Shown in pieces: positions 1,567 through 27,178 of a DNA stretch of 64,000 bases. The translations under genes were made by a program, and so were the position numbers. The DNA comes from an uncultured Pseudomonadales bacterium (GTDB taxonomy: Bacteria; Patescibacteriota; Microgenomatia; UBA1400; PJMF01). The notes under the pieces were generated by a model. The model was not told the DNA's origin, did no database searches, and worked only from the letters and a program-made list of their open reading frames with translations. Location of the stretch: positions 1,929-65,928 of the forward strand of contig CAZIBX010000001.1 in assembly GCA_964537615.1 (NCBI GenBank), written 5' to 3'. How positions within the stretch are numbered: position 1 is the first letter of the stretch; every line of letters starts with the position of its first letter.

Positions 1567-2838
1567 ATGAGACGGCTCCTGAATATCATCTGGGTTGTGG
1601 TGTTGTTTGTGGTTTTCTTGAGCAGTAGCCAAAAGGCGTCTGCTGCTACTTGTCCCGGTTTACATCAAGGTGTAGGAAATAACGTTTTGCTACCTATATA
1701 TACGCCGGGAGCGAGTCACACGGTGGTTATTGACACCTCGACGTTTAATAAGAACTACAATTACTACTTCAAAGTCAAAAATGGCAGTTTTTCTGATGAT
1801 GAAGCTCAAACACCATCTTTTAGAGTCGACGCTTCAAACAGTATCACAGATGGCTGTAACCAGATTACGGTTGATGCTACCAATAATAAAGTTACTTGGG
1901 TAATTTCTTGTCGGGAAGCACTACAAAATGCTGGTGACCGAGTTCAAGAAAAAGACCCTCATTATGTGATTGCTTATAGATGGGAGGCCGGGTCTAACCG
2001 GTTTTGTGACGTGGGTGCATACTACACTTCAGACAATGTGCTGAAAAACTCGACTTGTAAATTGGTTATCTGGCAAGGCGATGACTCACAACCAGGTATG
2101 GCTTGTTACGCCCCTGGATGTATCGAGAAAGACAAAGATGTCACTATCAGAGTAGACGAGTTAAAAATCAATAACCAACCATACAACGGCAATGTTTCAA
2201 TGGATTTAGCTGCAGGTGGAACCGACATTGTCCAAGATAGAGTTGTCGCCATCACCAATGGTATTGGAATGACTAAGTTTCCTCCGCGAAGCAAAACAAA
2301 ACATTCTGTGATTGTGAAGGTCAGAAATGCTGACGGTGGCCTTCGGATCGTTCCTGGTTGCAGAGCTAGTTTTAATGTTTCTGACTACTGTAGTCCCAAT
2401 CAGTGTAATAAAACCAGAACAGTTATGACTCCAGGAGACTTAAACGGGGCTCCGTTTAAAATCTGTGATCAAATCGACAGTGGTTTGCAGGACAGTCAGG
2501 GACGCAACATGAAAAATCTCTGTATCCAGTGTATCGGTGGTGATGAAGAAGGTCGGGAAGGTATGTGGACGGCGTTGGGCTGTATTCCTCGCCAACCAGA
2601 GCAAATCGTCAAACGTTTCTTGCTACTGGGACTGGGGATGGGAGGTGGGGTTGCTCTACTGATGATTCTGGTGGCTGGCTTCCAGATTTCTACCTCACAA
2701 GGTAATCCAGAACAGTTTAATAAAGCCAAAGAAATGCTAGTCGGAGCCATTACCGGTTTGCTGTTTATCATTTTTTCGGTGACGATTTTGCAGTTTATCG
2801 GTTACTCGATTTTGAAAATACCAGGATTTGGAGGGTAA
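1567..2838 (+). CDS. Large Cys-rich secreted ectodomain protein with a C-terminal pilin-like two-TM anchor (first member of the paralog array)
   Basis: The internal Met at 1567 gives a clean signal peptide (MRRLLNIIWVVVLFVVFLSSSQKASA). A ~330-aa Cys-rich ectodomain follows. The C-terminus (…LGLGMGGGVALLMILVAGFQISTSQGNPEQFNKAKEMLVGAITGLLFIIFSV…) has the same TM–polar loop–TM architecture as the downstream small paralogs. Confidence 0.6.
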   Translation: MRRLLNIIWVVVLFVVFLSSSQKASAATCPGLHQGVGNNVLLPIYTPGASHTVVIDTSTFNKNYNYYFKVKNGSFSDDEAQTPSFRVDASNSITDGCNQITVDATNNKVTWVISCREALQNAGDRVQEKDPHYVIAYRWEAGSNRFCDVGAYYTSDNVLKNSTCKLVIWQGDDSQPGMACYAPGCIEKDKDVTIRVDELKINNQPYNGNVSMDLAAGGTDIVQDRVVAITNGIGMTKFPPRSKTKHSVIVKVRNADGGLRIVPGCRASFNVSDYCSPNQCNKTRTVMTPGDLNGAPFKICDQIDSGLQDSQGRNMKNLCIQCIGGDEEGREGMWTALGCIPRQPEQIVKRFLLLGLGMGGGVALLMILVAGFQISTSQGNPEQFNKAKEMLVGAITGLLFIIFSVTILQFIGYSILKIPGFGG

Positions 2839-2840
2839 AG

Positions 2841-3575
2841 ATGAAAAAACAACTGATGAGGATAGTCACGACTTTACTATTTGTTGGTTTGGTTGCGTTT
2901 TACCCCCATCCAGCTCAAGCCCAAACTTGTGGTTTTGCTACTAGAAACCGCTGTGACGTTTGTACTAATAACCAAAAGTGTGTCAGTGGCCTAGGTTGGC
3001 CAATTTATGATTGTAGAACTGTAGCCGGTCAGTGCGGCGCTCCCTGGCCCACCACCTGCAACCAAGGCAACTACTTGCGCTGTGACGTTTGTCCATCTGG
3101 CCAACAATGTCTCAAGAGTGGCTCCAACTATTACTGTGGCACCCCCACCACGGCTTGCGTTACCCCCGCTCCCACTTCACCACCTGGCACCACCCCCACC
3201 ACCCCACCCACCCCCACCATGTTTTCTCCCTACGATCCACCGACCAACGAAACTTTTGACATGGTCAACCCGCTCAAGATCGGTGGTGGCACTGATCTGG
3301 CGTCAGACCAACCATCTCAATTTGCCGGCCAACTTTCCTCTCCAGGAGGCATCGTTAGTCGAGTTCTGACTTATGCCTTTCCTCTGGCCGGCTTGATTCT
3401 TTTTGCCATGCTGACTTGGGGAGGATTTGAGATGATCATGGGCGCTGCTAGCAAAAAATCTCTTGACGCTGGTAAACAACGCGCTACCGCTGCGGTTGTT
3501 GGGTTTTTGATCCTGTTTGTGTCATACTGGATATGGCAAATACTAGAAGTAGTTTTTGGCATCGTGGTGTTTTAA
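2841..3575 (+). CDS. T4SS pilin-like (VirB2/TrbC-like topology) two-TM protein with a duplicated Cys-rich module and Pro/Thr linker
   Basis: A GGAGGG RBS lies 6 nt upstream and there is a signal peptide. Two copies of the motif RCDVC-x-x-x-Q-[KQ]-C-[VL]-x-SG are followed by a TPPGTTPTTPPTPT linker. The C-terminal hairpin is LILFAMLTWGGFEMIMGAASKKSLDAGKQRATAAVVGFLILFV. Confidence 0.6.
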   Translation: MKKQLMRIVTTLLFVGLVAFYPHPAQAQTCGFATRNRCDVCTNNQKCVSGLGWPIYDCRTVAGQCGAPWPTTCNQGNYLRCDVCPSGQQCLKSGSNYYCGTPTTACVTPAPTSPPGTTPTTPPTPTMFSPYDPPTNETFDMVNPLKIGGGTDLASDQPSQFAGQLSSPGGIVSRVLTYAFPLAGLILFAMLTWGGFEMIMGAASKKSLDAGKQRATAAVVGFLILFVSYWIWQILEVVFGIVVF

Positions 3576-3580
3576 AAAAT

Positions 3581-4027
3581 ATGCAGAAAAAATACTTAAA
3601 AAATTGGTCACAAAAAATTTGGAAACTTTTCAGCTTGGCTGGCGGTCTGGTTATAACTGCTACTCAACTAACTTCAACTGTTTGGGCTCAACCCGCACCA
3701 CCTTGTGATCCCGGCTCCGGTGGTATTAACCTGGGTGACTGTCTGCGTTTAAGCGATGACTCTCTGGTTTCCAGTGTTTATAACAACCCAGCAGCTCTGG
3801 TTAACTTGCTGGCCCGCAATTTATTTGTGGTGGCCGGAGTGTTTTTGTTTGGCTTATTTTTACTGGCCGGACTGAAAATTATCGCGTCAGGCAAGGGCGG
3901 CAAACAAGGCCTGGACGAGGCCAAAACTATGCTGACCTCGGTGGCTATCGGTTTTGCTATCATGTTTGCTGCCTACTGGATCGTCCAGATCGTCAAAATC
4001 ATTACCGGAGCCAATATAGTTTTATAA
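3581..4027 (+). CDS. T4SS pilin-like two-TM protein (paralog)
   Basis: The start is moved to the ATG at 3581, just after the upstream stop; the track ORF 3533 overlaps the previous gene. There is a signal peptide and the C-terminal motif FLLAGLKIIASGKGGKQGLDEAKTMLTSVAIGFAIMFAAY. Confidence 0.55.
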   Translation: MQKKYLKNWSQKIWKLFSLAGGLVITATQLTSTVWAQPAPPCDPGSGGINLGDCLRLSDDSLVSSVYNNPAALVNLLARNLFVVAGVFLFGLFLLAGLKIIASGKGGKQGLDEAKTMLTSVAIGFAIMFAAYWIVQIVKIITGANIVL

Positions 4028-4038
4028 TCAGGATCACT

Positions 4039-4407
4039 ATGCCAGCAGATGATTTCATAAACATAGTCGGCAACATTCAGCCACCACCAGGGGTCGAACA
4101 ACAAATTGCTGATTCCGGCCTGGCACCCAATGAAGTAGCTCTGTTGTTTTTTGTTAATAAGATGTTAATTGCCGTGACTGTGGTGATGGGTATCTGGGTG
4201 TTATTTAATCTGGTCTTGGCTGGAGTCTCGTATATTACATCCTCCGGTGATGCCAAAGCTCATACTCAAGTCAAAGATCGGCTGATTATGAGTGTATTGG
4301 GCATTATATTGATCGTGGGGGCTTATACTTTGACTGCCGTAGTCAGTTATGTCATTTTTGGTGACCCCAACTACGCTCTTAACCCCACTATTACCGGACC
4401 CAACTGA
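4039..4407 (+). CDS. T4SS pilin-like two-TM protein (paralog)
   Basis: Hairpin VLAGVSYITSSGDAKAHTQVKDRLIMSVLGIILIV. The stop overlaps the next start (TGATG at 4404–4409), indicating translational coupling. Confidence 0.55.
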   Translation: MPADDFINIVGNIQPPPGVEQQIADSGLAPNEVALLFFVNKMLIAVTVVMGIWVLFNLVLAGVSYITSSGDAKAHTQVKDRLIMSVLGIILIVGAYTLTAVVSYVIFGDPNYALNPTITGPN

Positions 4408-5021
4408 TGTCAAACCTGATCTCAATCACCACTCAAAAGATTAAACAGCTTTTTGCCAAAACACATGTTTGGACACTTCTGTTGATAGTTGGACTGATAC
4501 TGATTGCGCCGATTTCTGTCAGTGCCCAAAACTGCCCTTCCGGCTATCAATGTGAGGGGGGGTGTGAGTATATCGGTCACTGCGTTTCCAACCGAACCTG
4601 TATTTTGGTGCCACCCTTTTACATCCGGCCTGGTGCTAGAAACTGCGGATCTTTTATCATCGGCCGAGTTAATCCTCCTCAAGGAGTAGCCGATTACAAC
4701 ATGCAGACCGCCCTCCAACCAGGATCAGGCAATATCGGGATTTTGTTGTTTGTTTCCAATGTCGTTAAGTTAATTACGGCCGTGGGCGGAATTCTGATTC
4801 TGATCAACTTCGTGGTGGCGGGCATTACTTTGATCGCACAAGCTGGCAATACCCAAGCCATGACCGGCGTCAAAGATAAGTTGACTTATGGCCTGATTGG
4901 TTTGGTCATCATGGTGGCGGCCTACACGGCTATGGCTCTAGTGGGTCAAATTATCTTCGGCAATCCCTTGTTTATCATCAATCCAGATCTTAACGCCTTG
5001 GGTGCTTTATCTGGACCGTAG
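4407..5021 (+). CDS. T4SS pilin-like two-TM protein with an N-terminal Cys-rich ectodomain (paralog)
   Basis: Signal peptide, then a CPSGYQCEGGCEYIGHCVSNRTC Cys cluster. Hairpin FVVAGITLIAQAGNTQAMTGVKDKLTYGLIGLVIMVAAY. Confidence 0.55.
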   Translation: MSNLISITTQKIKQLFAKTHVWTLLLIVGLILIAPISVSAQNCPSGYQCEGGCEYIGHCVSNRTCILVPPFYIRPGARNCGSFIIGRVNPPQGVADYNMQTALQPGSGNIGILLFVSNVVKLITAVGGILILINFVVAGITLIAQAGNTQAMTGVKDKLTYGLIGLVIMVAAYTAMALVGQIIFGNPLFIINPDLNALGALSGP

Positions 5022-5046
5022 TAAGCGTTATACTATCTACACAAAT

Positions 5047-5433
5047 ATGCCACTCTCTTCCAAACTCGCCCAGTTCGGCCAAGGCCTCCAACCACCCACC
5101 GACGCTTTCAGCACCGGCTCAACCAATGATCTGACTCAACCGGTCAATGCTTTTACCAATCTTGAGTACATGGTGTCCAACGTCATTGCTATCGTGACTG
5201 CTCTAGCTTCCCTGATGTTTATTTACTACTTTATCATGGCAGCTATCAGCTGGATTAACTCCGGTGGTGACTCTGGCAAGCTACAAACCGCCAGAAACCA
5301 GATGCTGAACGCAGTTCTGGGTTTGGTGCTACTGGTCGCCAGTTATGCCATCGTAGGTCTGATTGGTACTTTGTTTGGCCTTGACTTGCTCAATCCTGGT
5401 AAAGTGCTCAAAGGTTTAGTTCCCACACCATAA
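5047..5433 (+). CDS. T4SS pilin-like two-TM protein (paralog)
   Basis: Internal Met chosen as start. Hairpin FIMAAISWINSGGDSGKLQTARNQMLNAVLGLVLLVASY. Confidence 0.5.
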   Translation: MPLSSKLAQFGQGLQPPTDAFSTGSTNDLTQPVNAFTNLEYMVSNVIAIVTALASLMFIYYFIMAAISWINSGGDSGKLQTARNQMLNAVLGLVLLVASYAIVGLIGTLFGLDLLNPGKVLKGLVPTP

Positions 5434-5438
5434 CCAAT

Positions 5439-5942
5439 ATGTTCAAACTTCACTTACTAAATCAAACTTTCAGAACCGGTGCGGTGTTTTTGACAGTGAT
5501 AATAACTATGGTGATAGCCACTTTACTGATGGGTGGTAGACCAGTCATGGCCCAGATCACCAACCCGGCCATCGGTGAGCTGGGTGGAAATGATAATTCT
5601 GGTCAGTACAGCCCTGATCCAGCGGCCGTCACTGCAGCCCAGTCAGGGGCGTCATTTTTGGCCCAGTTTGTCCGACTGTGGGGCAATGTAGTCACCATCG
5701 GAGTTATCTTGGTTTTAGTCATGTTCATCTGGGGAGCGATCGAGTGGATTACGGCCGGTGGAGATGCCGGCAAGATCGGCAAGGCCCGCGACCGGATGTT
5801 GCAGTCGGCCATCGGCTTACTGGTTCTAGTCAGTTTGTTTATCTTGATTGGTTTCTTGAGCGGAACTCTGTTTGGCGATACACTTGATATCCTCAAGCCC
5901 AAGTTTGTCACCCCCAATACCAACACCGGAGCCACACCATGA
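5439..5942 (+). CDS. T4SS pilin-like two-TM protein (paralog)
   Basis: Signal peptide. Hairpin MFIWGAIEWITAGGDAGKIGKARDRMLQSAIGLLVLV. The start overlaps the upstream stop. Confidence 0.55.
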   Translation: MFKLHLLNQTFRTGAVFLTVIITMVIATLLMGGRPVMAQITNPAIGELGGNDNSGQYSPDPAAVTAAQSGASFLAQFVRLWGNVVTIGVILVLVMFIWGAIEWITAGGDAGKIGKARDRMLQSAIGLLVLVSLFILIGFLSGTLFGDTLDILKPKFVTPNTNTGATP

Positions 5943-6457
5943 TTTTCAGCTCACTTGTCGCCCAACTACCAGACACCGTACCTTTTGATATCGGAGAGGC
6001 CGGAGCCACGATTATTCCCCATGCCGTAGGCAATAATACGCCGGATACTTACCAGGCAGCTTTTGGTAATTTCTTGGGCAGTATTTTGTCTTTTGTGATC
6101 GTTATTGCAGTCATCATGGTGTTTCTATATCTAGTCTGGGGAGCTATCGAGTGGATTACTTCTGCTGGTGACAAAGGCAAACTGGAAAAAGCCCGCAACC
6201 GGATGTTTCAAGCAGTGATTGGTATTATTGTGTTATCCGGCACTTTGGCTTTTCTGATGATTATCCAACAGTTTTTGGGTATTTGTGTGTTAAGTATCAG
6301 TGGTAAGTGTACCGGGACTTCCAGCGCACCAACTGAACTCTATAGATGCTTGCCCATCAACCAGTGCGGGCCACCTACCAACTCTGGAGTGAGTGTCGGT
6401 AACTGTTCTCCTCACCGGGTGGGCTATGTCAACTGTCGATTCCGGGCTACACCTTAG
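5939..6457 (+). CDS. T4SS pilin-like two-TM protein with a C-terminal Cys-rich tail (paralog)
   Basis: ATGA start/stop overlap with the upstream gene. Hairpin LYLVWGAIEWITSAGDKGKLEKARNRMFQAVIGIIVL. The Cys-rich extension (…CVLSISGKCTG…CLPINQCGPP…NCSPHRVGYVNC) is at the C-terminus instead of the N-terminus. Confidence 0.55.
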   Translation: MIFSSLVAQLPDTVPFDIGEAGATIIPHAVGNNTPDTYQAAFGNFLGSILSFVIVIAVIMVFLYLVWGAIEWITSAGDKGKLEKARNRMFQAVIGIIVLSGTLAFLMIIQQFLGICVLSISGKCTGTSSAPTELYRCLPINQCGPPTNSGVSVGNCSPHRVGYVNCRFRATP

Positions 6458-6559
6458 TCACTACGCCTTGATCAGACAGCAACTTGACACTCGAGAATAA
6501 AGCACTGTACAATATAAAAGTACTTTGTAGCAATCATTAATAATAAAAAAGGGAGCTGT

Positions 6560-6976
6560 ATGAAACAGTCGCTAAAAACAATCACCGCCTTGGGTGGTGT
6601 GATGGTGGGTACTCTGCTAGCCAGCGTGCCACAAACGATGGCCGCCATTGACGTAGGCACCATCGAAGGTACCAAGGGTATGGCCAATAACTTTGGTAGC
6701 TTTCTTTCCAGCTTGCTGACCATCGTCATGGCTATCGCCGCTCTGGCTGTTTTCATTTACTTGATCTGGGGTGGTATCGAGTGGATTACCAGCGGTGGTG
6801 ACAAAGGCAAAACCGAGACTGCCAGAAACAAGATCACAGCCGCAGTCATCGGTTTGATCGTCTTGGCTGCAGCTTATGCCATCTTGTCCATCGTGCTGCG
6901 ATTCCTGGGCTTCTCCAGCATTACCAACGTGTTTGAGAACGTCAAGGTGATCACGCCAGGTGGCAGTGGCATTTAA
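6560..6976 (+). CDS. T4SS pilin-like two-TM protein (paralog; canonical member)
   Basis: AAGGGAG RBS and a signal peptide. Hairpin IYLIWGGIEWITSGGDKGKTETARNKITAAVIGLIVLAAAY. Confidence 0.6.
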   Translation: MKQSLKTITALGGVMVGTLLASVPQTMAAIDVGTIEGTKGMANNFGSFLSSLLTIVMAIAALAVFIYLIWGGIEWITSGGDKGKTETARNKITAAVIGLIVLAAAYAILSIVLRFLGFSSITNVFENVKVITPGGSGI

Positions 6977-7000
6977 TTAAACTTTAAGATCAAAAGTTTA

Positions 7001-7031
7001 ACACCCTCCCAAAGTTTGGGAGGGTGTTTTG
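7001..7031 (+). terminator. Rho-independent terminator inside the paralog array
   Basis: Perfect GC-rich inverted repeat CACCCTCCC-aaagttt-GGGAGGGTG at 7003–7027, followed by TTTT. Confidence 0.6.
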
Positions 7032-7057
7032 GTAATTCTGATATAATAAGTGGTCAT

Positions 7058-7606
7058 ATGTCCATCAAGCACTTCGTACTCACTCTTGTTCTCGTTTTTG
7101 GTATCAGTTATGGCGTAGTTGGCTCCACTCCAGCCATGGCCGCCGGTACAACTGGCACAGATACCAACGCCGGTCAAGTTCAAACTCAAAACACTGACGG
7201 CTCACTCAACTTGACCACCAGCGTCAACACCGCTACGGCTTCCACTACCCCCAATCCTGATCTAGAGTACTTACCGCCTGGTTTTGCCAAATCTTTTCCT
7301 GATCTTTTGGCCAGTATTTTGACCTTGCTGGTAGCAATTGTAGCTATCTTGGTTTTTGCTTACCTGATTTGGGGTGGACTCAACTGGATTACCAGCGGAG
7401 GCGATAAGGGCAAAACTGAGACCGCCCGCAATAAAATCATGGCTGCCTTGATCGGGCTGATCATCATCGCTTCGTCATACGCCGTGCTTCAGATCGTGTT
7501 GCGGTTTTTGGGCTACAGCTCATTGATCGATGCTTTTAATAAAATCAAACCCATATCTGAACCGGGTCGTAACTTGCGGGTTGAACTGACTGTAGAGAAA
7601 GCATAG
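7058..7606 (+). CDS. T4SS pilin-like two-TM protein (paralog; near-duplicate of 6560..6976 in the anchor)
   Basis: Start placed at the internal ATG at 7058 (MSIKHFVLTLVLVFGISYG… signal peptide). Thr/Asn-rich ectodomain. Hairpin AYLIWGGLNWITSGGDKGKTETARNKIMAALIGLIIIASSY, ~85% identical to the previous paralog anchor. Confidence 0.6.
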   Translation: MSIKHFVLTLVLVFGISYGVVGSTPAMAAGTTGTDTNAGQVQTQNTDGSLNLTTSVNTATASTTPNPDLEYLPPGFAKSFPDLLASILTLLVAIVAILVFAYLIWGGLNWITSGGDKGKTETARNKIMAALIGLIIIASSYAVLQIVLRFLGYSSLIDAFNKIKPISEPGRNLRVELTVEKA

Positions 7607-7615
7607 GATAAAGCC

Positions 7616-8035
7616 ATGTGGCGATTACGCAAGTGGTTAAAACACATCGGTTTAATTTTATCTGTCATAGCATTGTCGATTCCGGGCCGAGTTCTGGCTC
7701 AAACTGTGGAGTGGAACGGAGTTTGTGTCGGAGGAGCTGATCAAGATGTGGCAACCATCCAAGGGCTGGAGTGCTTGATCGCCAATGTTTTTACGGTTTT
7801 TATTACTTTGTTGGGGTTGCTGGGTTTTGTCATGTTCATCATCGCCGGATTCAAGTGGATGACATCTGGTGGTAACAGTAAAGGTATGGAGTCAGCCAGA
7901 GGCGCTATGACTTATGCCGTGCTGGGTCTGGTGATCAGTTTAAGTGCTTTTATCATCATCAACTTAATCGCCGAGTTTACCGGAGTTAATATCATCCGGA
8001 CATTTTCTATTCCCACATCTGATTTGGGTATGTAG
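7616..8035 (+). CDS. T4SS pilin-like two-TM protein (divergent last paralog)
   Basis: Signal peptide. Hairpin FIIAGFKWMTSGGNSKGMESARGAMTYAVLGLVISL. Confidence 0.5.
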   Translation: MWRLRKWLKHIGLILSVIALSIPGRVLAQTVEWNGVCVGGADQDVATIQGLECLIANVFTVFITLLGLLGFVMFIIAGFKWMTSGGNSKGMESARGAMTYAVLGLVISLSAFIIINLIAEFTGVNIIRTFSIPTSDLGM

Positions 8036-8134: not shown

Positions 8135-11100
8135 ATGTGCAAAAACCGGATTTTGTCTGGATTGATAAGTTTTTGGCTGATATGTTTACTGGTGGTAGGA
8201 CTAGGGTGGTCATTTTCTAGACCTGCTTATGCAACTTATGGCTTGCCCGAGTTTAAAACTGATTTGACCTGGTTACTGGGCAACGGATCAGTGTCTGGCG
8301 CCCTACTGTTTAACGCTTTCCGCACCAATCCCGACCCCAGCTTCACCAAACATGTTTTAAGTGACGAGCAAATTCAAGATTTGTGTGATGGCGACTGCGG
8401 AGCCAAAAACATCGGTGTTAACATGGCTACCTTTTATAAAGGCGGTGACTATGCCAGAGCCAGAACTCACAAGATGAACTGGTCACTGGAGATCATCAGG
8501 GCCAACACTTCACCTCAAACTGTAGCCGATATCATCAATAAGGAAGGCGTAGGTAACGTCATCATCAGAATCGGGGTAAGTGGTTCGGCCGAAGGTTTTG
8601 AGAGTCCAGCCACTTATGCTAATTTTTTGCGGGCGGTGGCCAGTCAAGTCGGCGGTAAGCCGTTTTATGCTATCGCCGGCCCCAACGAACCAGATTTGGA
8701 AAAATGGCTTGCCCAGGGCTGTTCTGCGCCCGAACCCAGTGCCGCTGAAGCAGTGAGACGGGCGTACTACAGTTGTATCGGCAAACCATTGGCTGATTAC
8801 ATGAACGCTATGATTTCTGCCGGCCTACCCACCAATGTCCGCCTGCTGTCGCCGGCTTTTAACTTAACCAGCTTTACTTTTGCCGACAACCCCGGTCAAC
8901 CCAGTGGTATCCCAAGGGCTATGAGATCAGCCGGAGCCAAGTTTGACAAACTTTATGCTCTCTCTGGCAACATCTACCCCAACGGTGACAGCATGCAAAA
9001 CATCTGGAATCGTAATGTAGCCGGTGTGGTAGCCGAGTTAGGCAAGCCGATGATAATTACCGAAACCGGCCCGTGGAACAACTTGTTGACTAACCCGGGA
9101 GGACTGGATCTGTCCAAATACCCTGATTACAACGCCTCTGACGGGCAAGTTTATATCAACCCCATCTTGGGACTGAACGGCCCGGCCCGCAATATCGCCA
9201 CCATCAGAAACGACTTGATTAACCAAGGATATGAGGCACGCTGTGCTACCCCGGGCTTTAAAATCGAACTGACCCAATCCGGCCAGGACTGGATGGACGA
9301 CTTTGTGGATCAGTACACGCCCGGTAAAGTTTTTGGTGGAGGTCAAAATGCTTATATCAAAGGCCGACCGGCTCCCGGCCCTTATGGTGAAGGTGACCCT
9401 GTCCGCTCGACTTTAACCATCGATTATCGAGATGTAGAAGTACCCCTGTTTCGGGATGTGGGGGGCAAAATGTTTCTGACCTCATCACTGGAAGAATTTT
9501 TCGGGTTCAAAGACATCACGGCCCAAGACAACACTATCTCTGAAGTTAACTCGTCGGCGATCAACTCTCTCTTATCCAATCTGCAACGCTGTCAGGTAGC
9601 GGCCACGCTTTTAATCAAACAGGAAGAAATGTGTCAAAAACTGCAAAGTCCCGATGCTTGTGCGCTTTATCCGCGCCAAATTCAGGGTACTGATCTGAAA
9701 GTCCAGGATCTGCTTAATCGGTACAAACAAGAGGCGGGATCGGATTACAAGTCTGACGCGACTGTCAGACGGGTCTGTGAAAAACTGCAAGCAGACAGTC
9801 AAGCCAACCCAGAATTAAAACAAGGCCTGTCACTTATGCCACTACATCTCGACCGAGCCTACCGCCTGGCTTTTCTGGTGACGGCTATTCAGTTGCGCTA
9901 TCCCACCTGGGATACCATGTTTCACTTTTTTACCCACCCCAACGCCGGGCCGGTAGACGGGCCGGAAAAACCCACCACAGCTATTCTGGTTAATGCGTTC
10001 AAAGTGCCGGATATCACCACCAATAAAGGCACCGCCACCAGTGGCCAAACACCCTGGACTGACCCGGCCATTTTGACCCGCAACTCTCTTTTGCCCAAAA
10101 ATACTGCTACCAAACTGGAAGAAAAAGCTCAAGAAAAACGCGATACGCTGAAGCTGGCGGCCAGCTACTATGATCAAGCCGAGCAGTCTGAAAAAGATGC
10201 AATTTTTTGCGTAGCCAAAGAAGCTCCGACCGGTATTGGTGGCCCAGAGTGTAATGACGAGTTGTCCAAGGCTTTGACCGACATCATCAATGGCCAAGCC
10301 AAACTTAATCTTCCTCTACTGGAATGTCCACAGGATCCGGCTGACTACCAGATAGAAACCAGCTTAGGTATCACTGACCCGGGATCACTGGATCCGCGCA
10401 CCGATCCCAGTAAGGTTTACAGCGTGCCATTTGGAGCTCAACTGTTGGAAAATATCTTCCGGACTGTGCCTGTGGGAACCCGATACTCTACAGCTGATTC
10501 AACCCATCAAATAGAACCACTTGGCGAAAGCGACCCGATGTTTGCGGAAACTTGGCGCACTGGCGATCCAGAAGGAGATAATCCTCTACCAGGAGTGAGA
10601 GATTGGGGACTGAAAAGCATGTTTCATGTAGTGACACAGATGCAGGACAGGGGTTTTCCTTACTGCTGTAAAGATCAGCGCATCGTCAAACATTATCTGG
10701 TTTATCCAGAAGGATACGACCTGCAAACCGTCGAGGATACTCTGGCCGGTTCTTTTTTCAGCCAAACTCAACTGACGGCTTTACTGGAATCAGAAAAAAA
10801 TTATGATCGGGTCAAAGTTGAGAACGACTCGATTGGGTTTGAGGGTGGACAGTTGAGTAAAACGTTTGCAGATAGCCAGAATACTTCTCCCAACAATAAT
10901 GTTCAGGGCGATCCGGCTTGCGCCAAAGAAGAACGCCTGCCAAATGGTGATACCAGGACTTATTATGCCCTACCCTGCGATCGGACTTTTGAGTTTAAAA
11001 TTGGTCAAAAAAATGAGGCCTTGTCGGCGGGCATACTGGGAGGTAAGTTGGGCTTCTGGCTAAGAGAAGTCCAAAAAACCCTCAACTCTTCTGCCAGTGT

Positions 11101-11599: not shown

Positions 11600-11606
11600 G
11601 AAAGTT

Positions 11607-12026: not shown

Positions 12027-12052
12027 GATGGGAAATTGGGGGTATTTAGTTT

Positions 12053-21924: not shown

Positions 21925-22926
21925 ATGCCCACTCCAGATCACCAAACCACCATTCCCAACCCCAACCGTTCCAAATATAGACTGATAATTGTTCTGGTGA
22001 TTGTGGTTATAGTCATAGTTATGCTGAAAATTTTTACTCCAGCCACACCGATTACCAAGGGGCCATTGACTCAACAAAACTTCGACGGTAGTAGCAGTAG
22101 TTTTAAACTCAAGTTTGTGGGTAACCAACCGGAGTTTCCTGGTGACTTGCCCATCGGTCACGTGGTGGTCGAAAGCGTCAGTCAAGCCGAGTTGCTCGCC
22201 CCACTCATCAATCAATATCAGCTCCAGCCCGAGCCGGGCGACCCTCTGGTCTGGACCGGCCCTGACTATGTTTTGGTCAAAGATGAGGGCTCCGGCATGT
22301 ACACTTTGGCCACTCAACTCCTAGCAGAGCGTAGTTCGACCATAAATGAAACTGAAATCATAACCCAAGCTGAAAACCTGGCCCAAAAACTGTTTCCTGA
22401 CACCCATCTCAAAGTTGTTCCATCAGACACCAGATACCTGGCTGGCAGTGAAGAACAAAAAGAAGTCGGGCTGGCCCAAGCCGAGGTGATTGAGTTGGTT
22501 CTCGCCCCCACCATGAGCAATTATCCTGTGATGATCAAAAACAACAGTCAAAGTTTGGTACAGATGACATTTGATAGTAGCCAAAAATTAATTAAACTCA
22601 ACTTTCTGCCAGAAGTGGCTGGATTGAGTTACTCACCTGGTATGGGTCAAGAGTTCAAGGTCATTAAAATCGATCAAGCGGTCGCCAATACCAACCGCGG
22701 CGACGGGGCGATTATCAGCGCTGATAGTCGGCAGGTTACAAGACTTAATCTCAACTCCAAAATAACGGGAAATCTTAATCGAGTGGAAATCGAGTATAGA
22801 AGCAATGATGCTCAACAGCTTTTGCCCTACTATCGTTTCTCTGGGTTATTACAATTGGATGGCTTGGAGTTTACAGCCGACATTATCACCCCAGCCATTG
22901 ATCTTGACACCATACCTGACTCATAA
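21925..22926 (+). CDS. N-terminally anchored extracytoplasmic protein, candidate VirB8-like component
   Basis: Single N-terminal TM (LIIVLVIVVIVIVMLKIF) followed by a ~290-aa extracytoplasmic domain. The position between the hydrolase and VirB3/VirB4-like genes matches Gram-positive T4SS VirB8-like proteins, but no motif supports it. Confidence 0.3.
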   Translation: MPTPDHQTTIPNPNRSKYRLIIVLVIVVIVIVMLKIFTPATPITKGPLTQQNFDGSSSSFKLKFVGNQPEFPGDLPIGHVVVESVSQAELLAPLINQYQLQPEPGDPLVWTGPDYVLVKDEGSGMYTLATQLLAERSSTINETEIITQAENLAQKLFPDTHLKVVPSDTRYLAGSEEQKEVGLAQAEVIELVLAPTMSNYPVMIKNNSQSLVQMTFDSSQKLIKLNFLPEVAGLSYSPGMGQEFKVIKIDQAVANTNRGDGAIISADSRQVTRLNLNSKITGNLNRVEIEYRSNDAQQLLPYYRFSGLLQLDGLEFTADIITPAIDLDTIPDS

Positions 22927-22941
22927 TCACTCTCACTGCCC

Positions 22942-24192
22942 ATGAAAGACCACCCCATCCCCCAAGACGTCACCGGTTATAAGTTTCATATCGTAGGTAA
23001 CATGACACTCAAGCAGTTTGGTTTGATTGTTTTTGGCGTGATTGTGGCCTTTATTATTTATCAACTGAAGTTACCGGCTTTAATCGGCTGGCCGTTTATC
23101 GTGATTTTTGCCGGCGGTGGTCTGCTGGCAGCGTTTATTCCGATTGAAGAAAGGCCACTGGATCACTGGATTTTAACTTTTATCAAAACACTCTACCGAC
23201 CCACCCAATTTTTCTGGCGCCGGGAACCCCATGTGCCAGCTGTGTTTGACTATGTGGCCAACAATAATCAAAACACCCCCCCTCCGACCGATTTGGCCCC
23301 GGCCAAAAGAGCACGGATTCATGACTATCTCAACTCACTCCATGACCCAGGAGATAATTCGGAAACAGATGAACACAGCCCCCAACTGGCCCAGATTTTG
23401 GCTAACTTTCACTCATCTCCTGATCCAGTTAATCAGACAGCGGATACTGCCCCTCCACCTAGTATGACGGTCAAAGTCAGGGCTCTGGCCCCCAATCCGG
23501 AAGACCAAACCAACCCGGAGAAAATGCCTGTTAGTGCCACCACCACCATCGTGGACTTTTCAGCTGCGACACAAACGACATCAGAACCGTTGATTGCTCC
23601 AGAACCACTAATGACTCCAGAGCTAACAATAACCCCAATACCACCAGCCAACCCAGAGCCAGAAGTCGACCGGACCATTTCCCAAGCCGCCAGCACAGTC
23701 CAACTACCCACTCAAACTATCACAGCCATTGATCACTCCGATCAAATCCAGAATGTGAACGAAAGCCCAATCCTACAACCCCAGCTGGAATCTACGCCAG
23801 TCACTCCGCCTGACCCAACTCCACCCAAGCCAGACAACACCAACACCATTTCCAGCATCACGCCAGAATCACTAGCTGAAAACACCCAAGTCGCTCAACA
23901 ACCAGACAACCTCCCCTTTCCTTCTGCGCCCAGCCAACCCAATGTAGTGGTGGGTATGGTGGTTAATCAAAAGCAAGAATTACTGCCAGGAGCTATAATA
24001 GAAGTGGCTCTAAACAGTGGCCAAGTCGTCAGGGTAGTACGCACCAATGCTTTGGGCCAATTCTTTGTGACTACACCATTACCAAATGGTAGTTATGTCC
24101 TGCGGGCAGAAGTGGACGGGCTACAGTTTGCCCCCCAAAGTCTTGAGGTAATTGGTCAAACAATTGCTCCAATTTTATTCACCGCCAGTTGA
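22942..24192 (+). CDS. VirB3/PrgI-like two-TM protein with a long Pro/Thr-rich extension
   Basis: N-terminal TM hairpin (FGLIVFGVIVAFIIYQLKLPALIGWPFIVIFAGGGLLAAFIPI) followed by WILTFIKTLYRPTQFF, reminiscent of PrgI/VirB3-family proteins found directly upstream of VirB4. A ~250-aa PT-rich low-complexity region is followed by a small C-terminal domain. Confidence 0.45.
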   Translation: MKDHPIPQDVTGYKFHIVGNMTLKQFGLIVFGVIVAFIIYQLKLPALIGWPFIVIFAGGGLLAAFIPIEERPLDHWILTFIKTLYRPTQFFWRREPHVPAVFDYVANNNQNTPPPTDLAPAKRARIHDYLNSLHDPGDNSETDEHSPQLAQILANFHSSPDPVNQTADTAPPPSMTVKVRALAPNPEDQTNPEKMPVSATTTIVDFSAATQTTSEPLIAPEPLMTPELTITPIPPANPEPEVDRTISQAASTVQLPTQTITAIDHSDQIQNVNESPILQPQLESTPVTPPDPTPPKPDNTNTISSITPESLAENTQVAQQPDNLPFPSAPSQPNVVVGMVVNQKQELLPGAIIEVALNSGQVVRVVRTNALGQFFVTTPLPNGSYVLRAEVDGLQFAPQSLEVIGQTIAPILFTAS

Positions 24193-24277
24193 AACTAGCC
24201 AGAATACAGTTTGTCGCCCGCACCAGTTAATAAGTAGCGATAACCGGTTGAAGCAGAAGGTTGAATCCTGTATTCTT

Positions 24278-25135
24278 ATGGTTGTTATGCCTGCCAGCAA
24301 CGTTTTGCACTCGACTACCCAGCATTTTTTGGATATTTATGACATCACCAACGACGTGGTGATGATTAAAAACGGCACGGTGTCTTTGATTTTGACCGTT
24401 GATGCTATGAACTTTGGGCTACTGGCCGATGAAGAACAAGACGGGGTGATGTATGCGTATGCCGGACTACTTAACTCTCTCAACTACCCCATCCAAATCC
24501 TGGTCCAGTCTCAAACCAAAGATGTGACCAATTATCTGCGACTACTCCAACAACAAGAAGAACAAACCCCCAATCCACTGATGCGCAAAAGAATCAGAAC
24601 ATACCGAGAGTTTGTGGCTAACTTAATCCACGAACGCAACGTATTGGATAAAAGATTTTATGTAGTTATCCCAGCTTCACCTCTAGAATTGGGGTTTTTG
24701 TCAGCCGGAGGCCTGGTGCCTGGTAGTAAACCATTTGATATCAGCTCTGTAGAAAAAAGCGTGGTGCTGGAAAAAGCCCTCAACATTCTTGAACCTCGCC
24801 GCGATCATCTCATTTCTCAATTTGCCCGCATCGGTCTTTTTTCTGAACAACTCAAAACACAGGATATCATTCAGTTGTTTTATCTCAACTACAACCCAGA
24901 AGCATCAGAGGGTCAAAAAATTACTGACAGCAAAAATTACACCTCGCCCCTGGTTCATGCCGCTTTAAGAGAAAAAATCGTGCAGGGTAGTCAACCAGAT
25001 GTGACCCCACCTGTACCTCCCGCTCCCACTCCACCCCTTACCCCACCAATCGAACCAATCCAGACCACCACACCAACCACACCAACTCAACCTAATCCTA
25101 TAACGCCAACCAACCCAGTCGCCAGCCCCACTTAA
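24278..25135 (+). CDS. T4SS-associated protein, possibly a detached VirB4 N-terminal segment
   Basis: Start moved to the internal ATG at 24278 to remove the 41-nt overlap. The segment …TTQHFLDIYDITNDVVMIKNGTVSLILTVDAMNFGLLADEEQDGVMYAYAGLLNSLNYPIQILVQS… resembles the extreme N-terminus of VirB4/TrbE family ATPases. A PT-rich tail follows. Confidence 0.35.
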   Translation: MVVMPASNVLHSTTQHFLDIYDITNDVVMIKNGTVSLILTVDAMNFGLLADEEQDGVMYAYAGLLNSLNYPIQILVQSQTKDVTNYLRLLQQQEEQTPNPLMRKRIRTYREFVANLIHERNVLDKRFYVVIPASPLELGFLSAGGLVPGSKPFDISSVEKSVVLEKALNILEPRRDHLISQFARIGLFSEQLKTQDIIQLFYLNYNPEASEGQKITDSKNYTSPLVHAALREKIVQGSQPDVTPPVPPAPTPPLTPPIEPIQTTTPTTPTQPNPITPTNPVASPT

Positions 25136-25138
25136 ACC

Positions 25139-27178
25139 ATGCCCAACTCACTACTTGCTTCACTACCGTTTTTTAGCAAAAAACCCTCTCCCACCGATCA
25201 GGACAAGGCCAAAGAGCTGGAGTTGGAAAAACTTAAAGAGTTTTCGCGGGGGCTGGTCACTATTCAGGACATCATTGCGCCAGAAGCTATCGAGGTAGAC
25301 TTCACCTTTCAAAAAATTAACTCTACTTATACCAGGACTTTATTTGTGGCCGGCTACCCCAGGTCGGTTCCTGCCAACTGGTTGTCACCCCTGATTAACT
25401 TCCCCCACCAAATCTCGGTCGGGATGTTTATTTATCCTGTTGATTCCACCGAAGTCCTAGATAACTTAAAACGCAAAATTACCGAGATGGAGGCAGAAAT
25501 TCAATCAGATCTACGCGCAGGTAAAATCAGCAACATCAACACGGAAATCAAACTGGAAGATGCCCGCTTCATCAGAGAAGATTTGGCCAAAGGCAGCGAG
25601 CGATTTTTCCAGTTCGGGCTATACGTCACCATCACCGCCACCAGCAAAGAAGAGTTGGACAGAGTAACCAAAGCCATCCAGTCGTCGCTAGGATCACTGC
25701 TGATCGTGTCTAAAAAAGCTACCCTGCAGATGGACGAGGGCTTCAAAACTACTCTGCCCATGGGGGTAGATAAACTGATTATCACCCGCAACATGGACAC
25801 CACCAGTTTGGCCACCACCTTTCCCTTCACTTCGTCTGAACTGGCCATGGACACCGGTATCGTTTATGGCATCAACGAACACAACGACTCGCTGGTGATT
25901 TTTGACCGCTTCAAGATGGAAAATGCCAACATGGTAATTTTTGCCAAATCGGGTGCTGGCAAGTCTTATACCGTCAAACTGGAGGTTTTGCGTCAACTGA
26001 TGTTTGGCTGTGAAATTATCGTCATGGATCCGGAACACGAGTATGAGGATTTGTGTAAAGCTGTGGGGGGCGAATACATCAACTTTACTTTTGGTTCGAC
26101 CGCCAAAATCAACCCCTTTGACCTATCCGCTCTATATGAAGAGGGTGAAAACGAACTGGGTCAAAAAATTATTTCCATCCACGGCTTGCTCAAAGTTATG
26201 TTGGGAGCCATGACTCCCCAGCAAGATGCCATTCTCGACCGAGCTTTGGTGGCTGCCTATAAAGCCAAGGGTATCACGCCAGATCCAGCTACCCAAACCA
26301 ACGAACCACCCTTGATGGAAGATGTGTATAAAGCTTTAATCGGTATGGAAAACAAAGAAGCCGACGACATCGCGGCTCGGCTGGAAAAGTTCATCACCGG
26401 CTCTTTCCGGGGAATTTTTGACCAAAAATCCAACATCGATATTAAAAACCAACTGACTGTTTTTTCCGTCAAAGAAATGGAAGAGGAAATGCGACCGATC
26501 GCCATGTATGTCATCCTGGACTTCATCTGGACTCGGGTGAAGAAAGATCTTAAAAAACGCATACTGGTGATTGATGAAGCCTGGTATTTTATGAAACACG
26601 CCGACTCGGCATCGTTTATTTACTCTATGGTCAAAAGGGCCCGTAAATACTACCTGGGCATCACCACCATTACTCAAGATGTAGAGGATTTTTTGCGCAA
26701 CGATTATGGTAAAGCCATCGTCACCAACGCCTCGATTCAATTTTTGATGAAACAGTCCTCTGCCTCAATTCCGGTTTTGGCCGAAACTTTCTTTTTATCT
26801 CAAGGAGAGCGCCAGTTGTTGGTGACTTCAGAAGTCGGTGAAGGTGTATTTTTTGCCGGTCAAAATCACGTGGCGATTAAAGTAGTAGCCAGCGACGAAG
26901 AACACTCGCTCATTACTACCAATCCAGAGGAATTGATGAAGCGCAAAGCAGATTTGGCTCAACAAACCAGTGTCAATCCCGCTCCCGCCAATCTGTCGTT
27001 TGCCCAAATTGAGTCCGGAATTACAACTCCCCCACCGGTTAATTTACCAGAACCACCAACCAATCCCAACCCAACTCCCACCATAATACAGAACACCCCG
27101 TCCCCAACTACTGTTCCGCAAGCTTACCAAGCCCCTACCATTGCTGACTACACCCCACCCAAACCTGGTACTTTTTAA
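25139..27178 (+). CDS. virB4: VirB4-like T4SS ATPase
   Basis: Carries the VirB4/CagE/TrbE motif TRTLFVAGYPRSVPANWLSPL. Walker A is FAKSGAGKSYTVK and Walker B-like is ILVIDEAWYFM. Size is 679 aa with a PT-rich C-terminal tail. Confidence 0.8.
   Translation: MPNSLLASLPFFSKKPSPTDQDKAKELELEKLKEFSRGLVTIQDIIAPEAIEVDFTFQKINSTYTRTLFVAGYPRSVPANWLSPLINFPHQISVGMFIYPVDSTEVLDNLKRKITEMEAEIQSDLRAGKISNINTEIKLEDARFIREDLAKGSERFFQFGLYVTITATSKEELDRVTKAIQSSLGSLLIVSKKATLQMDEGFKTTLPMGVDKLIITRNMDTTSLATTFPFTSSELAMDTGIVYGINEHNDSLVIFDRFKMENANMVIFAKSGAGKSYTVKLEVLRQLMFGCEIIVMDPEHEYEDLCKAVGGEYINFTFGSTAKINPFDLSALYEEGENELGQKIISIHGLLKVMLGAMTPQQDAILDRALVAAYKAKGITPDPATQTNEPPLMEDVYKALIGMENKEADDIAARLEKFITGSFRGIFDQKSNIDIKNQLTVFSVKEMEEEMRPIAMYVILDFIWTRVKKDLKKRILVIDEAWYFMKHADSASFIYSMVKRARKYYLGITTITQDVEDFLRNDYGKAIVTNASIQFLMKQSSASIPVLAETFFLSQGERQLLVTSEVGEGVFFAGQNHVAIKVVASDEEHSLITTNPEELMKRKADLAQQTSVNPAPANLSFAQIESGITTPPPVNLPEPPTNPNPTPTIIQNTPSPTTVPQAYQAPTIADYTPPKPGTF

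Follow-up and report, generated by a model that had tools for sequence, protein, structure and literature searches.

Positions 1567-27178 of the stretch analysed here (the window, 64 kb out of a 66.2-kb contig) hold a T4SS-like gene block that ends just short of dnaA, raising the question of whether this is a conjugative element or a resident system with another function. The source genome is a Microgenomatia-type Patescibacterium, and the 80 related loci collected for comparison are all in Patescibacteria MAGs (Pacebacteria, Woesebacteria or Microgenomates). The locus comprises 11 tandem VirB2-like pilins, an M23 protein, and PrgI/VirB3-like, TrsD-like and CD1110-type VirB4 proteins. Very probably, it is a chromosomal, vertically inherited T4SS of the Patescibacteria clade, derived from monoderm (MPF_FATA) conjugation machinery.

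A monoderm-type VirB4 with a separate N-terminal domain

The genes closest to dnaA define the type of system:

22942..24192, + strand, PrgI/VirB3-like membrane protein (PF12666 36.3 bits, cut-off 27; homologues in 72 loci)
24287..25135, + strand, TrsD-like protein, a stand-alone VirB4 N-terminal-domain homologue (NCBIfam TrsD 6.8e-5)
25139..27178, + strand, VirB4 ATPase of the MPF_FATA / CD1110 type (NCBIfam conju_CD1110 388.7 bits, cut-off 325)

The VirB4 ATPase aligns to positions 178-734 of the conju_CD1110 profile, with the first ~177 missing; it also matches P-loop_TraG (1e-22), and its best PDB match is 4ag5, VirB4 of a Gram-positive (1e-46). The TrsD-like protein matches VirB4_plasma positions 105-235 at 1.1e-6 and carries a precomputed Pfam assignment to PF26593 (TraC-like), and 25 of its 26 family members match both the VirB4 model, in its N-terminal part, and NCBIfam TrsD. 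These profile matches show that the monoderm-type VirB4 is encoded in two pieces, the TrsD-like N-domain protein and the ATPase. The PrgI/VirB3-like protein ends in a CarboxypepD_reg-like beta-sandwich (PF13620, 31.5 bits). CD1110-type VirB4, PrgI and TrsD together give the system a monoderm (MPF_FATA) architecture, in agreement with the Gram-positive layout, the VirB4 and VirB3/PrgI-like proteins and the extra VirB4-N-like protein of a preliminary description.

VirB4 is 70-87% identical across 80 species genomes. Median identity to the window is 80% for VirB4, 60% for TrsD, 54% for DnaA, 43% for YidC and 37% for DnaN, a sign of purifying selection on VirB4 and TrsD, with VirB4 conserved far beyond DnaA.

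An array of 11 pilins

Each of eleven genes on one strand (1567-8035) matches Pfam T4SS_pilin PF18895 through its C-terminal two-helix hairpin (E 5e-9 to 3e-3), and seven reach or exceed the gathering score, confirming the proposed pilin-like array:

1567..2838, + strand, pilin 1: signal peptide, then a Cys-rich extracellular domain of ~340 aa and a VirB2-like hairpin at the C-terminus (27.5 bits)
2841..3575, + strand, pilin 2: Cys-rich N-domain, Pro/Thr linker and hairpin (E 4e-4, below cut-off)
3578..4027, + strand, pilin 3 (E 2.7e-3, below cut-off; orthologues 52-54% identical)
4039..4407, + strand, pilin 4 (27.7 bits; orthologues in L084, L085 and L087)
4407..5021, + strand, pilin 5 (25.0 bits; orthologues found)
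5047..5433, + strand, pilin 6 (26.5 bits; orthologues found)
5439..5942, + strand, pilin 7 (27.2 bits; orthologues found)
5939..6457, + strand, pilin 8: C-terminal Cys-rich tail (30.2 bits; orthologues found)
6560..6976, + strand, pilin 9: short canonical form (36.5 bits)
7058..7606, + strand, pilin 10 (33.0 bits; 59% identical to pilin 9)
7616..8035, + strand, pilin 11 (34.3 bits; orthologues 61-66% identical)

Pairwise identity between paralogues in the window averages 25%, with a maximum of 57%. Pilins 1-11 occur in the same order in the metagenome contigs L084 and L087, where pilin 1 (14 Cys, TM segments) has positional orthologues and pilin 2 has orthologues of 49-55% identity; those of pilin 9 are 57-67% identical, and this gene is duplicated in L085 and L087. 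By this comparison the 11 pilins are ancient 1:1 orthologues whose order is fixed across genomes. Several carry large Cys-rich extracellular domains, and a near-consensus promoter-like site (11 of 12 matches) lies 5′ of pilin 9 at 6484-6513.

Membrane and cell-wall components

Four genes lie between the pilins and prgI on the same strand:

8135..11599, + strand, 1154-aa secreted Cys-rich protein: N-terminal hydrophobic segment, 30 Cys; next after the pilin array in L084-L087
12935..14761, + strand, 608-aa polytopic membrane protein: signal-like N-terminus, about 6 TM segments; syntenic in L084, L073 and L056
17859..21920, + strand, 1353-aa M23 protein: cytoplasmic N-region of ~880 aa, then Gly-rich TM segments and, outside the cell, the M23 peptidase (PF01551, E 1e-18)
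21925..22926, + strand, 333-aa bitopic protein: tandem YycI/PepSY-like alpha+beta domains

The M23 cell-wall hydrolase was correctly recognised in the preliminary description. Its TM segments lie at 888-1045, its M23 domain is C-terminal with the H...D...HxH Zn-ligand columns conserved among relatives, and homologues occur in 49 loci; it probably takes the VirB1 role.

Five of the eight component labels first proposed thus agree with the profile matches, and the remaining three (GH5-like, VirB6-like and VirB8-like) lack homology support. The 1154-aa protein had been called a GH5-like hydrolase. N184-E185-P186 and T309-E310-T311-G312 (NEP and TETG) are its sole invariant motifs in five orthologues, and on these motifs alone its N-domain is possibly a clan GH-A glycosidase; family homology did not emerge, with zero Pfam, NCBIfam or PDB matches even for a five-sequence profile. 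The 608-aa protein, labelled VirB6/TrbL-like, belongs to a large family (3269 representative clusters) and gave no signal in searches for VirB6, TrbL or PrgH similarity; topology and position make it a candidate functional VirB6 analogue. For the 333-aa protein, VirB8 homology tests were negative or weak; the VirB8-like label reflects topology and position only, and the protein models as a YycI/PepSY-like fold. PrgH, PrgL and PrgD of pCF10 have no detectable similarity to either the 608-aa or the 333-aa protein.

The locus lies in core chromosome beside dnaA

The virB4 stop codon (27178) and the dnaA start (27311) are separated by a 132-bp spacer, close to the 130 bp first reported.

27311..28825, + strand, dnaA, the boundary marker outside the T4SS (Bac_DnaA 8.8e-66)
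28796..29053, strand not applicable, probable oriC core: DnaA-box cluster and AT-rich stretch in the dnaA-dnaN spacer

The locus had been described as abutting oriC. Adjacency to dnaA holds, but it is the dnaA-dnaN spacer (28796-28990) that contains the best DnaA-box cluster, rather than the 132 bp between virB4 and dnaA. It consists of a perfect TTATCCACA box at 28796 and one-mismatch boxes at 28841 and 28946, accompanied by additional box-like heptamers and an AT-rich run.

Both flanks are housekeeping genes: a SpoIID-domain protein on the left and dnaA-dnaN-rnpA-yidC-jag on the right. On the right, the order M23 - 333-aa gene - PrgI - TrsD - VirB4 - dnaA - dnaN - yidC - jag - RNase H - DUF4012 recurs in relatives; of 70 genomes of related species, 69 have virB4 directly followed by dnaA (dnaA-dnaN-yidC-jag). 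The order to the left, SpoIID(-) - pilins 1-11 - 1154-aa - 260-aa(-) - 608-aa, is retained in L084 and L087 at ~35-65% identity. Because the virB4-dnaA junction and, in the two metagenome contigs, the SpoIID-pilin junction are both retained, the locus is vertically inherited core chromosome; its earlier placement in core chromosome rather than a mobile island is supported by these gene orders.

Searches of every ORF of at least 120 aa in the 64-kb window detected neither a relaxase nor an integrase nor a VirD4/FtsK-like ATPase, and neither tRNA genes nor flanking direct or att-like repeats occur within it. The reported lack of a MOB relaxase, VirD4 and integrase therefore stands for this 64 kb. 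Other parts of the genome may still encode a T4CP or a relaxase. Among 3,035 Patescibacteria genomes surveyed, 2,918 have VirD4-like T4CP homologues, usually at a distance from virB4, and a few carry relaxases (109 in 103 genomes) (PMC12102498).

Relation to known systems

The locus is an ordinary example of the known dnaA-adjacent, relaxase-less chromosomal T4SS of Patescibacteria (CPR bacteria). In the published survey (Quinonero-Coronel et al. 2025, PMC12102498), the Patescibacteria VirB4 clade is nested in MPF_FATA, relaxases are missing near the locus, VirB4 is accompanied by adjacent TrsD and PrgI, an M23 wall hydrolase and VirB2 arrays of 2-11 genes (mean identity 25%), and dnaA, dnaN and rnpA lie nearby in Microgenomatia and Paceibacteria. 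The window shows the same features with no essential difference, its 11 pilins standing at the top of the published range with the same mean identity. The Southlakia epibionticum ML1 T4SS (SEML1_0006-0019; Wang et al. 2023, PMC10633639) likewise combines Gram-positive-like subunits with a pilin array, lacks a relaxase or T4CP in its cluster and has origin-proximal locus tags. This saccharimonadial system differs in its pilin number, 6 against 11 here, and in the genes downstream of virB4, which encode a peptidase and a lysozyme where dnaA follows directly in the window; there the T4SS and its pilin array are proven essential for epibiotic growth.

As in pCF10 Prg/Pcf and CTn2-type (CD1110) Firmicutes T4SS (MPF_FATA), VirB4 passes the CD1110 cut-off, PrgI/VirB3 and a large membrane-anchored wall hydrolase (a PrgK analogue) are present, and outer-membrane core components are absent. 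pCF10 encodes adhesins (PrgB), the coupling protein PcfC (VirD4) and a relaxase with its accessory factors, but no VirB2 pilins; the window locus has pilins, lacks T4CP, relaxase and adhesin, and has a VirB4 split from its TrsD-like N-domain protein. Bordetella Ptl, Brucella VirB and H. pylori ComB also work without a VirD4 coupling protein or relaxase, but belong to the diderm MPF_T type, built around a VirB7/9/10 core, sharing homology with the locus in VirB4, VirB3 and VirB2 only.

Gram-positive MPF_FATA ancestry, TrsD, PrgI and pilin arrays of 2-11, the missing relaxase and dnaA proximity are thus already in print (Wang 2023; Quinonero-Coronel 2025), as is the inference of a non-conjugative T4SS near the origin. 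Our additions are four small points: the ancient 1:1 orthology of the 11 pilins, the much stronger conservation of VirB4 than of DnaA, a hypervariable opposite-strand slot within the locus, and the DnaA-box cluster in the dnaA-dnaN spacer. PMC12102498 states neither that the pilins are 1:1 orthologues in a constant order across genomes, nor the opposite-strand slot, nor the YycI/PepSY-like 333-aa model. The window further shows a large conserved polytopic family in the place of VirB6, for which few homologues have been reported in this class.

Possible functions

An integrated conjugative element, or its decayed remnant, with relaxase, T4CP and integrase outside the window, is very improbable. 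Its VirB4, PrgI and TrsD proteins belong to families known from conjugative elements of Gram-positives, a few Patescibacteria do carry relaxases, and the left flank is visible only to the SpoIID-domain gene, which runs off the window. Set against this are the conserved junctions on both sides, the absence of integrase, tRNA and att-like repeats, a GC content equal to that of the flanks save at one ORFan, and divergence of adjacent T4SS genes that roughly parallels that of housekeeping genes.

DNA import, as by H. pylori ComB or archaeal Ced, to supply nucleotides or genes from the host cell, has been raised because Patescibacteria cannot make nucleotides (PMC11665869), and would accord with the missing relaxase and T4CP in the 64-kb window. 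VirB4 does match CedB (1.1e-16), but at 60.7 bits this is far under the cut-off of 700, whereas the CD1110 conjugative type passes its own. CedA/CedA1/CedA2 or ComB7/9/10-type proteins were not detected by profile searches, and none of the locus genes is recognisable as encoding a nuclease or a DNA-binding protein. Nor does S. epibionticum lend support, since it can do without competence, which depends on ComEC and type IV pili, but not without the T4SS (PMC12857230). We consider import unlikely, and give similarly low weight to a surface filament for host attachment, in which VirB4 would be a pilus-assembly ATPase only and no substrate would be translocated. Pilins make up 11 of ~20 genes, several with Cys-rich extracellular domains suited to binding, every paralogue is kept as a 1:1 orthologue, and a substrate-recruiting T4CP is absent from the 64-kb window. 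However, type IV pili are already encoded for adhesion (three N_methyl pilin genes at 57997-59587) and handle adhesion in Saccharibacteria (PMC12857230), and a conduit is suggested by the two wall hydrolases and by the conservation of a polytopic protein of channel type.

We favour a machine for contact-dependent exchange with a host bacterium rather than conjugation. VirB4, the TrsD-like protein and PrgI would energise a cytoplasmic-membrane channel in which the 608-aa protein may take the VirB6 role and the bitopic 333-aa protein that of a scaffold. VirB4 would also power pilin extraction and polymerisation into an extracellular filament or tube, while peptidoglycan, whether of the cell itself or of its host, would be opened by the M23 peptidase and by the putative glycosidase, the secreted 1154-aa protein. 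The likeliest role would be protein/effector export or uptake of host macromolecules; such exchange fits the essentiality of the homologous system in epibiotic growth of S. epibionticum. At the level of the locus, a monoderm T4SS conserved beside dnaA, with no relaxase, T4CP or integrase in 64 kb, supports the non-conjugative reading given in the preliminary description.

Two opposite-strand genes

Two minus-strand genes, absent from the preliminary description, break up the block:

12053..12835, - strand, 260-aa predicted cytoplasmic protein: position conserved, L084 having an orthologue (37% identity) at the same site, also on the minus strand
14778..17750, - strand, acidic cytoplasmic ORFan of 990 aa, occupying the hypervariable slot

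Family searches with the 260-aa protein (Pfam, NCBIfam) gave no match. The ORFan, with a net charge of -47, no signal peptide and one weak borderline hydrophobic segment (148-166), matched only itself among 5.8e9 proteins. Relatives carry unrelated minus-strand ORFs in its slot, and GC around the ORFan is 0.39-0.43, the locus elsewhere having the same GC as its flanks.

The T4SS locus and its gene content

Profile searches across the 64 kb bear out a relaxase-less T4SS block with Gram-positive architecture, as claimed from sequence alone in the preliminary description, whose interpretation proved essentially correct. The map was built from an ORF listing combined with profile searches.

Genes of the T4SS locus and its left flank (window positions, strand, description)
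2-1483, -, SpoIID-domain gene, cut by the left window edge
1567-8035, +, 11 co-oriented pilin genes, terminal two-helix hairpin, Pfam T4SS_pilin PF18895
8135-11599, +, 1154-aa secreted Cys-rich protein
12053-12835, -, 260-aa gene
12935-14761, +, 608-aa polytopic membrane protein
14778-17750, -, 990-aa gene
17859-21920, +, 1353-aa protein with C-terminal M23 peptidase domain
21925-22926, +, 333-aa bitopic protein
22942-24192, +, PrgI-family protein (PF12666)
24287-25135, +, 282-aa TrsD-like protein, directly upstream of virB4
25139-27178, +, VirB4 ATPase

A spacer of 132 bp separates virB4 from dnaA, after which come dnaN, rnpA, yidC, jag, RNase H, a DUF4012 protein, L25 and then housekeeping genes to 64 kb. 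Two opposite-strand genes (12053-12835 and 14778-17750), unmentioned in the preliminary description, interrupt the block. No relaxase (MOB-type), VirD4/FtsK-type, integrase or transposase domain was detected in ORFs of at least 120 aa in the 64-kb window, and the locus itself contains no DNA-processing genes. The claimed lack of relaxase, coupling protein and integrase therefore holds within the window; for the coupling protein it can be claimed for this window only, because T4CP homologues are present in 2,918 of 3,035 Patescibacteria genomes, usually far from virB4 (PMC12102498). Rfam families were not found anywhere in the window, and a scan for sigma-70 promoters and terminators gave counts not above those of shuffles. 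Two near-consensus sigma-70-like promoters were observed, one at 6484-6513 (+, 11/12 matches) in the intergenic gap preceding pilin 9, the other at 17786-17758 (-, 10/12 matches) ahead of the 990-aa minus-strand gene.

Components of the secretion apparatus

The VirB4 ATPase passed the cut-off of the NCBIfam model conju_CD1110 (388.7 bits against 325), the match covering profile positions 178-734 only. This model describes the Firmicutes CTn2-type conjugative VirB4. The best solved relative is PDB 4ag5, the VirB4 of a Gram-positive (1e-46), and assignment of the protein to the monoderm MPF_FATA type appears solid on these matches. The 282-aa protein encoded directly upstream, initially labelled an extra VirB4-N-like protein, matches the N-terminal part of the VirB4 model (positions 105-235) as well as the TrsD model. 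When the family was aligned from related genomes, 25 of 26 members matched both models, the best E-values being 6.5e-8 for NCBIfam TrsD and 3.4e-11 for the VirB4 N-region, with all scores under the curated cut-offs, and the label was upheld. The tie to the VirB4 N-domain is visible solely via NCBIfam profiles: no similarity emerged when the protein was compared by BLASTP with the VirB4 of the window, or the family by hhalign with pCF10 PrgJ. Judged by its profile matches, the 282-aa protein is a TrsD homologue, a component known from pGO1-type systems. The PrgI/VirB3 and M23 labels were likewise confirmed, the former by PF12666 (36.3 bits, cut-off 27); the zinc-ligand columns of M23 (H, D, HxH) are kept across relatives.

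For three further proteins the labels have no backing from homology. The 1154-aa protein, described as GH5-like, drew no match from Pfam, NCBIfam or PDB, and a profile built from five sequences did no better; the best GH profile for its family, Glyco_hydro_cc, reached an E-value of 0.14 in one of five orthologues. What is left of the label is a pair of invariant motifs, NEP and TETG, 125 residues apart, which fit a clan GH-A glycosidase but fall short of proof.

The family of the 608-aa protein is large, with 3269 clusters at 50% identity. No homology supports the label VirB6/TrbL-like: neither a Pfam search with 51 members against TrbL/VirB6, nor a PDB profile search against VirB6 chains, nor hhalign against pCF10 PrgH detected similarity. 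Topology and position alone make it a candidate for the VirB6 role. A published survey found VirB6 to be scarce in Microgenomatia, so a VirB6 homologue is no strict requirement of this family, and VirB8 to be rarely detectable (PMC12102498). Searches of the 333-aa family against VirB8-type scaffolds, by PDB profile and by Pfam on 46 members, were negative, as was hhalign against PrgL and PrgD; a first AF2 model of this protein, from 3 sequences, had a pLDDT of 42 and was unusable.

Vertical inheritance and conservation of the locus

Scanning one genome per species with VirB4 gave 309 relatives. The best 80 of these (70-87% identity), which we used, are all Patescibacteria MAGs of the Pacebacteria/Woesebacteria/Microgenomates type, some of them wrongly titled, in keeping with a place for this VirB4 in the monophyletic Patescibacteria clade. 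The junction at the right end is nearly invariant: of the 70 loci that extend far enough downstream, 69 have dnaA directly after virB4, in the same orientation. The order kept in relatives is M23, 333-aa, PrgI, TrsD, VirB4, dnaA, dnaN, (rnpA), yidC, jag, RNase H, DUF4012. When metagenomes were scanned with the 1154-aa protein, four contigs were recovered, and two of these, L084 and L087, keep the left half, with the SpoIID gene (-), all 11 pilins in unchanged order and the 1154-aa gene. L084, which shares its source organism with genome locus L004, continues with the 260-aa gene (-) and the 608-aa gene. As block and flanks are syntenic across relatives, the 27-kb block with both its flanks is vertically inherited in this lineage and is core chromosome, not an island, in agreement with the preliminary description.

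Across the same 80 genome loci (L001-L080), median identity to the window is 80% for VirB4, compared with 54% for DnaA, 43% for YidC and 37% for DnaN, a gap that is somewhat inflated by the choice of loci by VirB4 similarity, yet large. The far greater divergence of DnaA, YidC and DnaN points to unusually strong constraint on the VirB4 ATPase.

The 964-aa DUF4012 protein (32631-35525) recurs after jag and RNase H in 54 of the 80 related loci, and its gene belongs to this origin-proximal block of synteny.

Position relative to oriC

The locus had been described as abutting oriC, which is approximately right: dnaA is indeed 132 bp away, but the oriC core likely lies ~1.6 kb from the end of virB4, in the dnaA-dnaN spacer region, where the best cluster of DnaA boxes is found. 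The sole perfect DnaA box in the window, TTATCCACA, is at 28796, and the region 28796-29053 (dnaA 3′ end and dnaA-dnaN spacer) combines it with several one-mismatch boxes and an AT-rich run. Within the 132-bp virB4-dnaA spacer there is a single one-mismatch box, at 27229, along with one other 9-mer resembling a box. Cumulative GC skew reaches its minimum near 36 kb, away from dnaA, in a 64-kb window that is too short for skew to decide. If the origin is at dnaA-dnaN, we infer that the plus-strand T4SS genes (18 of the 20 of the block) would be head-on to the leftward fork.

An ordered set of pilins

The pilin-like array of the preliminary description was substantiated as 11 genes of PF18895, seven scoring at or above the gathering score and four below it. 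Core identity within the array averages 25%, with a maximum of 57%. Each of the 11 pilins has its best match in its positional counterpart in the related contigs, in the same order and at 34-67% identity (window 1567-8035 compared with L084 2505-9838 and L087 2225-9869). Only pilin 9 is duplicated, in the metagenome contigs L085 and L087. By these matches the 11 pilins are an old, fixed set of 1:1 orthologues. Such a set, with orthologues 34-67% and paralogues ~25% identical, is easier to reconcile with a filament that is heteromeric or divided in roles than with the rapid antigenic or host-range variation proposed in the literature.

A hypervariable slot and exchangeable wall-cutting modules

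One position in the locus behaves differently from its surroundings. Among 38 loci with a readable gene just upstream of the M23 gene, 17 carry a large ORF on the minus strand at this position, flanked by the 608-aa and M23 genes (window 14778-17750 (-), L073 2029-4218, L084 18987-21557, and likewise L021, L047 and others). Together with the window's own, these 17 ORFs fall into 11 unrelated sequence groups; they are large, mostly acidic and without signal peptide, and most are without Pfam domains. The slot protein is unrelated between genomes though the flanking T4SS genes are ~50% identical. This slot is hypervariable, and the rest of the T4SS locus is conserved.

In the window the slot is occupied by the 990-aa gene, which has a lowered GC content (0.39-0.43). 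Its product, acidic and cytoplasmic, has no homologue among 5.8e9 proteins, nor did jackhmmer find one in the 80 loci. We also considered this ORFan as a cryptic T4CP or relaxase and rejected it, finding no Pfam, Walker A, HUH or HExxH motifs. A reading of low probability is that lineage-specific substrates of the T4SS, or factors of host specificity, are encoded in the slot, in which case its ORFs would be the first candidate cargo for the Patescibacteria T4SS; they may instead be passengers. VirB4, TrsD, PrgI, the polytopic protein and the ordered 11 pilins are the fixed parts and the opposite-strand slot is the part that turns over, a contrast that could narrow the search for substrates.

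Variation of another kind affects the wall hydrolases. In the related loci L005 (2798-6610) and L024 (2689-7035), the C-terminal end of the 1353-aa homologue carries an HExxH-type motif sequence in place of the M23 domain, which suggests wall-hydrolase module swapping. In L084 the site of the window's 453-bp spacer 11600-12052 is taken by an additional gene, whose 620-aa product has an SLT_3 lysozyme-like domain. Because M23 is replaced in two loci and the SLT_3 gene added in another, the wall-cutting modules are, on domain content, exchangeable. The spacer itself lies between convergent genes, is AT-rich (GC 0.34), has no Rfam match and contains a 25-nt inverted repeat (11683-11707 / 11803-11827, 88% complementary).

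Relation to published systems

T4SS are essential for the epibiotic life of the Patescibacteria, a huge and mostly uncultured bacterial radiation. The Saccharibacterial T4SS (SEML1_0006-0019) is Gram-positive-like, has an essential pilin array, is without recognisable coupling or relaxase proteins and probably moves no DNA (Wang et al. 2023, PMC10633639). A survey of 3,035 Patescibacteria genomes found VirB4 in 2,417, almost all in one clade nested in MPF_FATA, with TrsD as the most frequent companion of virB4 and PrgI common; VirB2-like arrays of 2-11 genes with a mean identity of 25% occur especially in Microgenomatia and Saccharimonadia, relaxases in only 103 genomes, and dnaA, dnaN and rnpA are enriched beside virB4 in Paceibacteria and Microgenomatia (Quinonero-Coronel et al. 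2025, PMC12102498). A 2025 review treats these systems as newcomers that are now established in the superfamily (PMC12857230), and their function has been called completely unknown even in cultivated species (PMC11665869).

The present locus resembles the Patescibacteria clade in its MPF_FATA VirB4, adjacent TrsD, PrgI and divergent VirB2-like array (PF18895/PF04956), in having no relaxase by virB4 in the 64-kb window, and in its chromosomal position beside dnaA, dnaN and rnpA; it departs from the clade's list in that the 608-aa protein does not qualify as a VirB6 homologue. Its pilin array, with 11 genes and a mean identity of 25%, falls squarely within the published statistics (PMC12102498). 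Every headline claim on the locus was already published in 2023-2025, and it is an unremarkable member: a textbook Microgenomatia arrangement and no new kind of system. Its value is that of a clean, complete example, from the SpoIID-domain gene through dnaA. Beyond the literature, 1:1 pilin orthology, the VirB4 conservation gap, the hypervariable slot and exchangeable wall-cutting modules are small additions.

Proposed function and alternatives

The locus combines a split monoderm-type VirB4 with TrsD, VirB3/PrgI, a wall peptidase and many VirB2-like pilins, under strong constraint. We propose that VirB4, TrsD and PrgI would power a cytoplasmic-membrane channel in which the 608-aa polytopic protein may play the VirB6 part and the 333-aa bitopic protein the scaffold part. 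VirB4 would also drive pilin assembly into an extracellular filament or tube, and the M23 peptidase, perhaps together with the secreted 1154-aa enzyme, may cut the peptidoglycan of its own or the host cell. The purpose would be contact-dependent exchange with a host bacterium, with protein export and uptake of host macromolecules as the two options.

Three other readings were weighed against contact-dependent exchange. If the locus were the remnant of an ICE, variable presence or insertion site would be a mark of it; the neighbours are the same in 69 of 70 species genomes and in L084 and L087. Neither relaxase (MOB) and oriT nor a T4CP (VirD4/TcpA) lies within the window, integrases number zero, and the whole-window scan found no tRNA, so there is no tRNA-type integration site. 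No direct repeat brackets the locus: a search for att-site repeats over positions 1-30000 returned nothing beyond the pilin paralogue core and short chance-level matches. Such an ICE remnant is thus extremely improbable. Import of DNA by a Ced/ComB-like machine has a better, though still low, probability: the window VirB4 scores 60.7 bits with CedB, far under the cut-off of 700, and profile searches found neither the CedA partner nor ComB2-10 families among the locus proteins. That the pilins form a filament for adhesion and nothing else is about equally unlikely. Contact-dependent exchange remains the reading we prefer.

At the far right of the window are three consecutive N_methyl-motif type IV pilin-like genes (57997-59587, +), two of them with T2SSG similarity, adjoined by a 1466-aa minus-strand protein (59595-63995) that reaches the window edge. 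The genes at 57997-63995 are probably part of a type IV pilus or competence apparatus.
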